Shown: positions 20,352 to 24,300 of the stretch, in pieces
Position numbering within the stretch: the stretch's first letter is position 1
How the letters are laid out: each line of letters starts with the position of its first letter
Origin: a virus
Taxonomy: Duplodnaviria > Heunggongvirae > Uroviricota > Caudoviricetes
Length of the DNA: 40,480 bases
Direction: 5' to 3' (one strand)
IMG/VR virus record: IMGVR_UViG_2718218098_000005
Coordinates: 1-40,480 of that record
Notes under the pieces: model-generated
Database searches by the model: none
The model's input: only the letters and a program-made list of their open reading frames with translations
Told to the model about the DNA's origin: nothing
Program-made: the position numbers and the translations under genes

Positions 20352-20497
20352 AATCGGTTTTACCTATCAATCATTCAATCACATTCCAAAAAAAGTTTTC
20401 GAACCTGCGGCGATGCGAGGAAGGGTCAGGCGGCGGTACTGAGCAGCCAGGGCTGCAGAGATTTGACCCGCCCCTCCCCTACAGATGGGAACTGTTA

Positions 20498-20848
20498 TCA
20501 ATTGATGCGTTCGCGCGCTGTTTTTGCTTTATGGCAGGGCCAGCACAGACTCTGCAGGTTACTGTCTGCATCCGTGCCACCATGAGCTTTCGGAATGATG
20601 TGGTCCACAGTTCTGGCTTCAACGGCTCTCCCATTGCGCAGGCAGTTCTGACACAGATGATTATCACGCTTCAGTATGCGCGCACGTATGGCATCCCATT
20701 TCGAGCCATAGCCACGCTGGTGGCGACTCAGTCCGCGTTGATGCTGTACCCATCCTTCGCCACGATGTTTATCGCAGTAACCAGAACTGTCGGTGGTTGT
20801 ACCTGCGCATCCACGCTTACGGCAGGCACGTGGGATTCGTGATGGCAT
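20498..20848 (-). CDS. HNH endonuclease (terminase-associated)
   Basis: Cys-rich N-terminus and ..DHIIPKAHGGTDADSNLQSLCWPCH.. HNH motif; located just upstream of terS as in HK97 gp74. Confidence 0.85.
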   Translation of the reverse strand: MPSRIPRACRKRGCAGTTTDSSGYCDKHRGEGWVQHQRGLSRHQRGYGSKWDAIRARILKRDNHLCQNCLRNGRAVEARTVDHIIPKAHGGTDADSNLQSLCWPCHKAKTARERIN

Positions 20849-20855
20849 AAATACC

Positions 20856-21056
20856 TCATACCCTGTTCAGTTTAATGACGGGCTGATTCTCGATATGTTC
20901 TGCTGTCAGTCTGAAAGTCACTGTGACTGTTGGTAGCTCGCCTCCGCGTGACTCTGTTCTTGCGGAAAGCTGCCCTTCCAGTAACTCACCATTAACTGCA
21001 ATCCCATAACCTACGAAATGTTTACCACGATAAAGTTTTGCCAGTTGGTAATTCAT
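20856..21056 (-). CDS. Hypothetical protein (66 aa)
   Basis: ATG at 21056 with AGGAGG 6 nt upstream; no domain recognised. Confidence 0.5.
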   Translation of the reverse strand: MNYQLAKLYRGKHFVGYGIAVNGELLEGQLSARTESRGGELPTVTVTFRLTAEHIENQPVIKLNRV

Positions 21057-21142
21057 TTGCATCCTCCTGCAAAAATCCAGTTCGTGATGTGCATAAAAAA
21101 GCCCCGCGTATGTGGGGCTAATGATTGCAGGGATTTATTGTC

Positions 21143-21445
21143 TCAGTCTAATTTAATAAGTTTTACAGGTTTCTCTCCTGCATCTACGCACCAGTTGTTG
21201 TACTCATGTACAGCCCGCATCAACTCACCATCATAATGACCAACCTTCTCTACAAGATCCGTAAGCGATTGGGGATTAAATTCAACAATTTCAGGTGGGA
21301 CGAGATTCACATTCCCTTTCTGATGAAGGGCATAGACCGCAGTACGCAGATCACCAATAGCTTTCATTCGTTCAGCATAAAGGTCCTTGATCTTTTCATT
21401 GAGAATTTTGCAGCGACCAATTGCTTCATAATTCAGTTCAGACAT
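21143..21445 (-). CDS. Hypothetical protein (100 aa)
   Basis: ATG at 21445 (MSELNYEAIG) with AGGAGG 4 nt upstream. Confidence 0.55.
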   Translation of the reverse strand: MSELNYEAIGRCKILNEKIKDLYAERMKAIGDLRTAVYALHQKGNVNLVPPEIVEFNPQSLTDLVEKVGHYDGELMRAVHEYNNWCVDAGEKPVKLIKLD

Positions 21446-23990: not shown

Positions 23991-24065
<75 letters not shown>

Positions 24066-24068
24066 ATA

Positions 24069-24144
<76 letters not shown>

Positions 24145-24146
24145 AC

Positions 24147-24223
24147 TGGACCGCCACCGGGGACTCGAACCTCGCACACTCAACTTAAAGTGTTGACGCT
24201 CTTTCCTGATGAACTAGTAGCGG
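24147..24223 (-). tRNA. tRNA-like, probable anticodon TTT (Lys) with C33
   Basis: Acceptor CCGCTAC/GTGGCGG, 5-bp anticodon stem TCAAC/GTTGA, loop ACTTTAA, T-loop TTCGAGT, CCA encoded. Confidence 0.5.
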
Positions 24224-24224
24224 T

Positions 24225-24300
24225 TGGTGGCCCTGGCTGGATTTGAACCAGCGACCTGGCGATTATGAGTCGCTCGCTCTCACCACTGAGCTAAAGGGCC
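24225..24300 (-). tRNA. tRNA-Ile2-like (anticodon CAT; ileX/ileZ type)
   Basis: Strong similarity by recollection to E. coli ileX; anticodon loop CTCATAA; CCA encoded. Confidence 0.8.

Follow-up and report, generated by a model that had tools for sequence, protein, structure and literature searches.

Genes flanking the HNH-terS gap

The stretch of DNA analyzed here (the window, 40,480 nucleotides) carries an HNH endonuclease gene followed by terS, terL, and the portal protein gene (Table 1). The end of the HNH gene and the start of terS enclose the 146-bp non-coding gap that the original prediction had reported, and the same HNH and terS genes with the same 146-bp gap appear in the PGAP annotation of a 100% identical prophage of E. 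coli M19. This M19 prophage extends from the integrase through the tail fibres, with intact terS, terL, portal, HK97-family protease, and capsid genes, and two of its accessory genes are pseudogenes.

Table 1. Positions of genes, predicted cos elements, and matching loci. Negative and positive remarks on position are relative to the predicted cut, with +1 at window position 20425.
Feature	Position	Strand	Remarks
HNH endonuclease gene, 116 aa	20498-20848	-	last gene before cos; counterpart of HK97 gp74
HNH-terS intergenic region, 146 bp, candidate cos unit	20352-20497	-	ORF listing; M19 annotation
G-rich block GGGGAGGGGCGGGTCAAATC	20460-20479	-	-54 to -35; most widely conserved part of the site
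24-bp spacer	20436-20459	-	-34 to -11; AC directly before the overhang; length fixed across phages
Predicted cosN cohesive-end sequence CGCCGCCTGA	20426-20435	-	-10 to -1; column-for-column with HK97, SfI, and phiP27
Candidate TerS site (cosB-like), CATCGCCGCAGGTTCGAAAAC then T7	20388-20415	-	CATCGCCGCAGGTTCGAAAAC at +11 to +31 (20395-20415); T7 at +32 to +38 (20388-20394)
Two direct TCAATCA repeats, 8 bp apart	20367-20381	+	within the AT-rich leader, shortly before the terS ribosome-binding site
terS, P27-family small terminase, 160 aa	19869-20351	-	
terL, HK97-type large terminase, 585 aa	18112-19869	-	
Portal protein gene	16677-17918	-	PF04860
Gap copy in IMG/VR locus L202	L202:10785-10936	-	matches window 20504-20353
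Gap copy in IMG/VR locus L115	L115:2119-2297		matches window 20503-20325

The HNH protein was assigned to PF01844 by Pfam (E 1.9e-16) and shares 37% identity over 70 aa with HK97 gp74 (E 6e-12), which contains the same domain. Its closest sequence match in the PDB was 5H0M (E 2.4e-15), an entry named 'HNH endonuclease' that we take to be the HNH protein of Geobacillus phage GVE2. The large terminase contains PF03354 and PF20441, both of which are also found in HK97 gp2, and is 29% identical to gp2 (E 5e-42); its sole PDB sequence match was the HK97 TerL structure 6Z6D (E 1.2e-36). The portal protein (PF04860, E 1.4e-108) is 32% identical to HK97 gp3 (E 9e-60). The small terminase is of a different kind. 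It belongs to the P27 family, as seen with Pfam (PF05119, E 1.4e-26), NCBIfam (TIGR01558, E 7e-32), and the hhalign comparison with the TerS cluster of phiP27 and SfV (99%), and no sequence similarity to HK97 gp1 was found by BLAST, Pfam, NCBIfam, or hhalign. A sequence search with TerS against the PDB gave nothing meaningful, and a Foldseek search of the PDB with its AF2 model gave no match below E 0.4. The HK97-like arrangement to which the original prediction had appealed is found in the gene order (HNH, gap, terS, terL, portal) and in the homologous HNH, TerL, and portal proteins, but not in the sequence family of the small terminase.

A 60-aa hydrophobic ORF lies between terL and the portal gene (window 17918-18100, minus strand) and is annotated as 'hypothetical protein' in phage phi467 and in M19. 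HK97 has no counterpart of this ORF, as its terL and portal genes abut.

Composition of the gap

A GC-rich block, GGGTCAGGCGGCGGTACTGAGCAGCC, had been pointed out in the gap. It is present as a single copy at 20423-20448 and includes the predicted 10-nt cohesive-end sequence, but GC richness does not extend to the entire gap, whose GC content of 51.4% equals that of the window. The composition is bipartite, with 67-70% GC over about 20400-20479 on the HNH side and 25-37% over about 20340-20399 on the terS side.

An Rfam scan of 20000-21200 with E values up to 1 gave no match, and a scan of 20200-20700 detected neither a terminator nor, on the coding (minus) strand, any promoter-like site. The one promoter-like match was weak (9 of 12 positions, 20345-20374) and lies on the non-coding plus strand. 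Known RNA families, terminators, and coding-strand promoters therefore offer no competing explanation of the gap. It contains no inverted repeats; the two short direct TCAATCA repeats were the only ones found, and their region varies among close relatives. A 40-aa ORF at 20379-20501 was also considered, but 1-nt indels in its G-run and its T-run among close relatives speak against it, and it was dismissed.

Alignment with cos sites of defined ends

In an unbiased comparison of the gap with the entire HNH-terS spacer of HK97, the best ungapped 54-mer pair was window 20479-20426 and HK97 positions -54 to -1, with identity at 34 of 54 positions. Shuffled sequences gave 25.9 +/- 1.3 identities in the same comparison, with a maximum of 31, and 34 was reached in none of 300 shuffles. 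As the match covers -54 to -1, it ends exactly at the HK97 cleavage point. An alignment with HK97 cos was the check suggested in the original prediction, and it turned out positive.

In HK97, cleavage falls on the -1/+1 boundary and leaves 10-nt 3' overhangs, and the minimal TerS site is located at +15 to +29 (PMC11331095). The HK97 record ends with GGGGGGGGGATCAAATC, 24 nt, and CGCCGCCAAA, and restarts with GTTTGAATTT. When position 1 of the record is taken as +1, the T at 16, the G:C pair at 21, and the A/T tract at 24-29 fit the published site (PMC11331095). Re-sequencing of HK97 with PhageTerm also gave a 3' cos type, with termini that bracket the 10-nt cohesive sequence (PMC5557969). The last 10 nt of HK97, CGCCGCCAAA, are identical to the window sequence CGCCGCCTGA at 8 of 10 positions. 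One paper on HK97 TerL is not consistent in itself, as a figure legend gives 10-nt 3' overhangs and the discussion gives 12-nt 3' overhangs, together with 10-nt 5' overhangs for lambda (PMC9410871); the other sources support 10 nt for HK97.

Two further cohesive ends align with the window in the same way. For SfI, the virion DNA ends were sequenced and compared with the prophage, which gave the 10-nt cohesive-end sequence TGCCCGCCCC, reported with no statement of overhang polarity (PMC3636060). This sequence occupies the same columns as CGCCGCCTGA of the window, and so does CGCCCGCCCC, which the phiP27 record labels as a cos-site of 10 nt. In mEp235, CGCCGCCTAG is found in the same register as the window cosN. 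We found no published end determination for any phage with exactly the cosN allele of the window. The ends of deposited records were also considered as stand-ins for the physical ends. Those of mEp235 and SfV are arbitrary, as the former record opens with the ATG of terS and the latter is broken within the spacer, and they were left out.

Predicted anatomy of the cos site

On the minus strand, the window reads GGGGAGGGGCGGGTCAAATC, 24 nt, CGCCGCCTGA, and then CCCTTCC. By homology, the predicted +1 is window position 20425, and the predicted nicks lie at 20426/20425 on the minus strand and at 20435/20436 on the plus strand, which would generate 10-nt 3' overhangs. As CGCCGCCTGA differs from the HK97 sequence at 2 of 10 positions and from that of phiP27 at 5 of 10, the nick positions could shift by a base or two. 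The original prediction had held that the exact nick sites cannot be read from the sequence. Homology with the defined ends, however, permits a nucleotide-level prediction of the cut position.

The G-rich block is kept in HK97 (as GGGGGGGGGATCAAATC), phiP27, SfV, SfI, mEp235, and F1055, and plain BLAST matched nothing but this block in SfII and other more distant phages. The length of the spacer that follows is identical in HK97, phiP27, SfI, mEp235, and F1055. The block may be a docking element for terminase and HNH protein or a cosQ-like element. On the other side of the cut, CATCGCCGCAGGTTCGAAAAC with the adjoining T7 is a candidate TerS site that would correspond to a cosB.

Conservation of the site among related phages

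The elements were combined into the composite spaced motif GGGG-N4-TCAAA-N24-AC-YGCC, which occurs once in the window and in none of 100 shuffles, even with one mismatch allowed. A search of IMG/VR with this motif gave at least 120 matches. Among the 120 matches listed, 104 were closely preceded by a same-strand HNH gene, 92 had an HK97-type terL downstream, and 110 had at least one HNH, TerL, or TerS homologue at the expected place and in the expected orientation; about six of the 120 look like chance matches. The matches listed are also conserved at positions that the pattern leaves free, namely -54 to -50, -45 to -42, -36/-35, -27/-26, -14/-13, and -4.

Relatives of the window TerS are encoded by at least 572 IMG/VR contigs (tblastn, E <= 1e-3), the best 80 of which are 97-99% identical. 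The region is found in 1053 of 5426 complete E. coli genomes (about 19%). The record of phi467 is identical to the window in the G-rich block, the spacer, cosN, and the 21-mer of the TerS site, and records of vB_Eco phages are 95-96% identical over the whole gap.

Close relatives were compared in an alignment of the window with 77 IMG/VR relatives. In these 78 sequences, 6.3% of the sites in the gap vary, as compared to 10-14% of the third codon positions in the flanking genes. The 21 nt of CATCGCCGCAGGTTCGAAAAC are invariant in all 78, which indicates a continuing constraint on this downstream block.

A mosaic junction at the predicted cut

Of the 78 sequences, 63 have the cosN allele CGCCGCCTGA and the other 15 have CGCCCGCCAA. 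These two alleles are tightly linked to the sequence upstream of them, as the consensus sequences of the two groups differ at 61 of 351 positions in the HNH gene and at 13 of 62 in the upstream part of the gap. Past the cut, the two groups are nearly identical (4 differences in 74 positions of the downstream gap and 7 in 483 of terS). Linkage on the upstream side and near-identity on the downstream side mark a mosaic or recombination junction at the predicted cut, and this junction independently supports the predicted cleavage position. We infer as its cause either recombination at cos ends or the co-adaptation of modules.

Across more distant phages, the first ORF downstream of each motif was taken and grouped by protein similarity into TerS clusters. 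The type of sequence past the cut goes with the TerS cluster rather than with the cosN allele. It is TTTTTTTATACCCGCGAAAAATGAAATTT with the SfV/phiP27 TerS cluster and AACGCTAACCCGATTTTTTT with that of HK97; with the cluster of the window and mEp235, it is either CGCCGCAGGTT[C/A]GAAAAC or AACCGCGAAATGAAAAG, in both cases followed by a T run. Alleles of cosN of the CGCCGCC type occur with all three TerS clusters. The data hint that recombination prefers the cos cut as its junction, at which modules of HNH plus cosN are swapped against modules of TerS plus its site.

Comparison with characterized packaging systems

Besides the gene order, the window shares with HK97 a G-rich block that ends in TCAAATC, a 24-bp spacer that ends in AC, and a 10-nt cohesive sequence of the CGCCGCC type. 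There is also a likeness downstream of the cut, where HK97 has a G:C step followed by an A/T tract and the window has CGCCGC...GAAAAC followed by T7 at +11 to +38. However, the candidate TerS site of the window differs in sequence from that of HK97 (+15 to +29) and is about 8 bp more distant from the cut. Since no sequence similarity between the P27-family TerS and gp1 was found, the half of the site that TerS would recognize is different in the two phages. The distance from the HNH stop codon to the cut is 72 bp in the window and 319 bp in HK97.

The phages phiP27, SfV, and SfI have a P27-family TerS, an identical G-rich block, and the same spacing, but they carry the cohesive sequence YGCCCGCCCC. 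In its place, the window has CGCCGCCTGA, with 5 of 10 positions identical to phiP27. The minority allele CGCCCGCCAA of the close relatives is intermediate between the two. Their downstream site, TTTTTTTATACCCGCGAAAAATGAAATTT, is also different from CATCGCCGCAGGTTCGAAAAC with T7 in the window, and their TerS falls into another cluster. The closest TerS cluster and downstream site are those of mEp235 (Nochtlivirus) and related prophages of Klebsiella, Morganella, and Cronobacter, with ATCGCCGCAGGTTAGAAAAC followed by T6 downstream and CGCCGCCTAG as cosN. This group differs from the window in its G-rich block, which is the variant GGGTCAAAAG, and in a longer spacer between HNH and cos; we found no published end determination for its phages.

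The cosB of lambda is IHF-assisted. The cosQ-cosN-cosB order of lambda follows the same logic as the predicted site, with one element ahead of the nicking site and a small-terminase site between the nick and terS. The overhangs of lambda are 12-nt 5' ones (PMC5557969). Lambda uses the Nu1/gpA terminase and is not known to have an HNH partner, whereas the window encodes a TerS with PF05119 and a TerL with PF03354/PF20441, and the IHF consensus WATCAANNNNTTR has no match anywhere in the window. With neither Nu1/gpA nor a match to the IHF consensus, the site is not of the lambda type.

Copies of the gap in satellite-like elements

Two IMG/VR loci carry a copy of the HNH-terS gap that is 78-80% identical and nothing else from the window (L202 and L115 in Table 1). 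L202 encodes an integrase, a DUF927 primase-like protein, an SSB, a ProQ/FinO protein, a K88 fimbrial subunit, and a Nu1-like protein. No HNH gene, no P27-family terS, and no HK97-type terL was found in either locus. Judging by this gene content, both are probably PICI-like or P4-like satellites that hijack cos sites of the window type. Capture of the gap alone by satellites would mean that the gap is a self-contained packaging signal.

Two other loci contain a cos core of the SfV type (L191:5306-5348, minus strand, and L147:5162-5204), consisting of the G-rich block, TGCC[C/A]GCCCC, and ATACCCGCGAAAAATGAAAA. The core is preceded by a GC hairpin, GAGGGCGGAATTCCGCCTT, and no flanking HNH or terminase genes were detected. 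These may represent a second kind of satellite cos.

Interpretation of the gap as a cos site

We conclude with high confidence from these comparisons that the gap represents the cos site of a lambdoid prophage, apparently a complete one, with a head and packaging module of the HK97 type. The identities of the genes, the homology to experimentally defined cos sites, and the conserved spacing support this conclusion, as do the co-variation of the downstream site with the type of TerS and the location of the mosaic junction at the predicted cut. The original prediction, which had proposed a cos region in the gap, was thus very probably right. It is borne out by the homology to HK97 cos in sequence, internal spacing, and gene context, and the feature appears to be an ordinary site and a close relative of that of HK97.

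As it was in principle possible that the site is a true cos only by descent, residing in a defective prophage and no longer used, we considered the state of the prophage. The two pseudogenes in the identical M19 prophage would agree with such a relic, but the gene set is full from the integrase to the tail fibres, and terS, terL, portal, protease, and capsid genes are intact. Moreover, phi467 shares the identical cos core, the vB_Eco records are nearly identical over the gap, and the invariant downstream block shows that constraint continues, which together make a relic unlikely. The gap could also hold a cos site with nick positions, or an overhang length or polarity, that deviate from HK97, given that TerS and part of cosN are different. 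Such a shift would find some backing in the cosN differences from HK97 and phiP27, in the other sequence family of the window TerS, and in the two overhang lengths that are stated for HK97 within one paper (PMC9410871). However, HK97, SfI, and phiP27, whose ends are defined, all have the same 24-bp spacing and the same AC ahead of the overhang, the mosaic junction of the close relatives falls on the -1/+1 boundary, and the cutting proteins TerL and HNH are clear homologues of those of HK97. We therefore consider shifted nicks to be quite improbable.

It is very hard to reconcile with the data that the gap serves merely as a leader of terS or of late transcription, with packaging by the headful (pac) mechanism or from another site and with the likeness to cos as inherited baggage. 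It is true that the support for cos comes from sequence only and that conservation of the gap exceeds that of synonymous sites by no more than a moderate margin. However, the only relative of TerL with a solved structure is the cos-type enzyme of HK97, and the motif between HNH and terS keeps its exact internal spacing across very divergent phages. In addition, satellite-like elements captured exactly the gap segment and nothing else, and neither a terminator nor a coding-strand promoter-like site was found.

For a functional cos site, the proposed mechanism is based on analogy with the work on HK97 (PMC11331095, PMC9410871, PMC10359639). In the direction of the phage, the HNH stop codon would be followed by the G-rich block, the 24-bp spacer, and the 10-nt cosN from 20435 to 20426, and then by a GC-rich stretch and a T-tract as the presumed small-terminase site (+11 to +38), the AT-rich leader, and terS. 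A ring of P27-family TerS would bind to the downstream site, just inside the left end, and TerL, helped by the HNH protein, would introduce two nicks 10 bp apart to give 10-nt 3' cohesive ends. Packaging would run from +1 through terS and terL until the next cos in the concatemer is reached, where bound TerS would stall the motor, trigger cutting, and end packaging. The actual nicks, the polarity of the overhang, the pairing of proteins with sub-sites, and the inducibility of the prophage are in this scheme presumed from the homology.

The G-rich block is common to the HK97, phiP27/SfV, and mEp235 groups regardless of the TerS family and therefore came into consideration as a sub-site of its own. 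Its constant distance of 24 bp to the cohesive sequence whatever the TerS family makes us tentatively suggest a so far uncharacterized cos sub-site, a possibility about which we are rather doubtful. Such a sub-site may be, for example, a docking or termination element for the nuclease pair of TerL and HNH and a functional analogue of cosQ of lambda. The papers on HK97 packaging (PMC11331095, PMC9410871, PMC10359639) map the TerS site only and are silent on the G-rich block, and a literature search with its sequence gave nothing but unrelated primer matches.

Significance for prophage annotation

The main value of the prediction lies in annotation, as it assigns genome ends and a packaging mode to a prophage module that is present in about one fifth of the complete E. 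coli genomes and whose carriers include relatives of Stx2-carrying phages such as phi467. The comparative picture is useful for research on HK97 packaging and on cos-hijacking satellites, and it overturns nothing known; what is mildly new is limited to the conservation of the G-rich block upstream, the position of the mosaic junction, and the acquisition of the gap by satellite-like elements.

The window also contains four tandem tRNA genes (Gly-TCC, Thr-TGT, Lys-TTT, and Met-CAT) at 23991-24300 on the minus strand, between the Q antiterminator and the lysis genes. At this position, the related phage phi467 carries stx2 with tRNA-Thr and tRNA-Gly, and the annotation of the otherwise identical M19 prophage lists tRNA-Ile and tRNA-Gly only.
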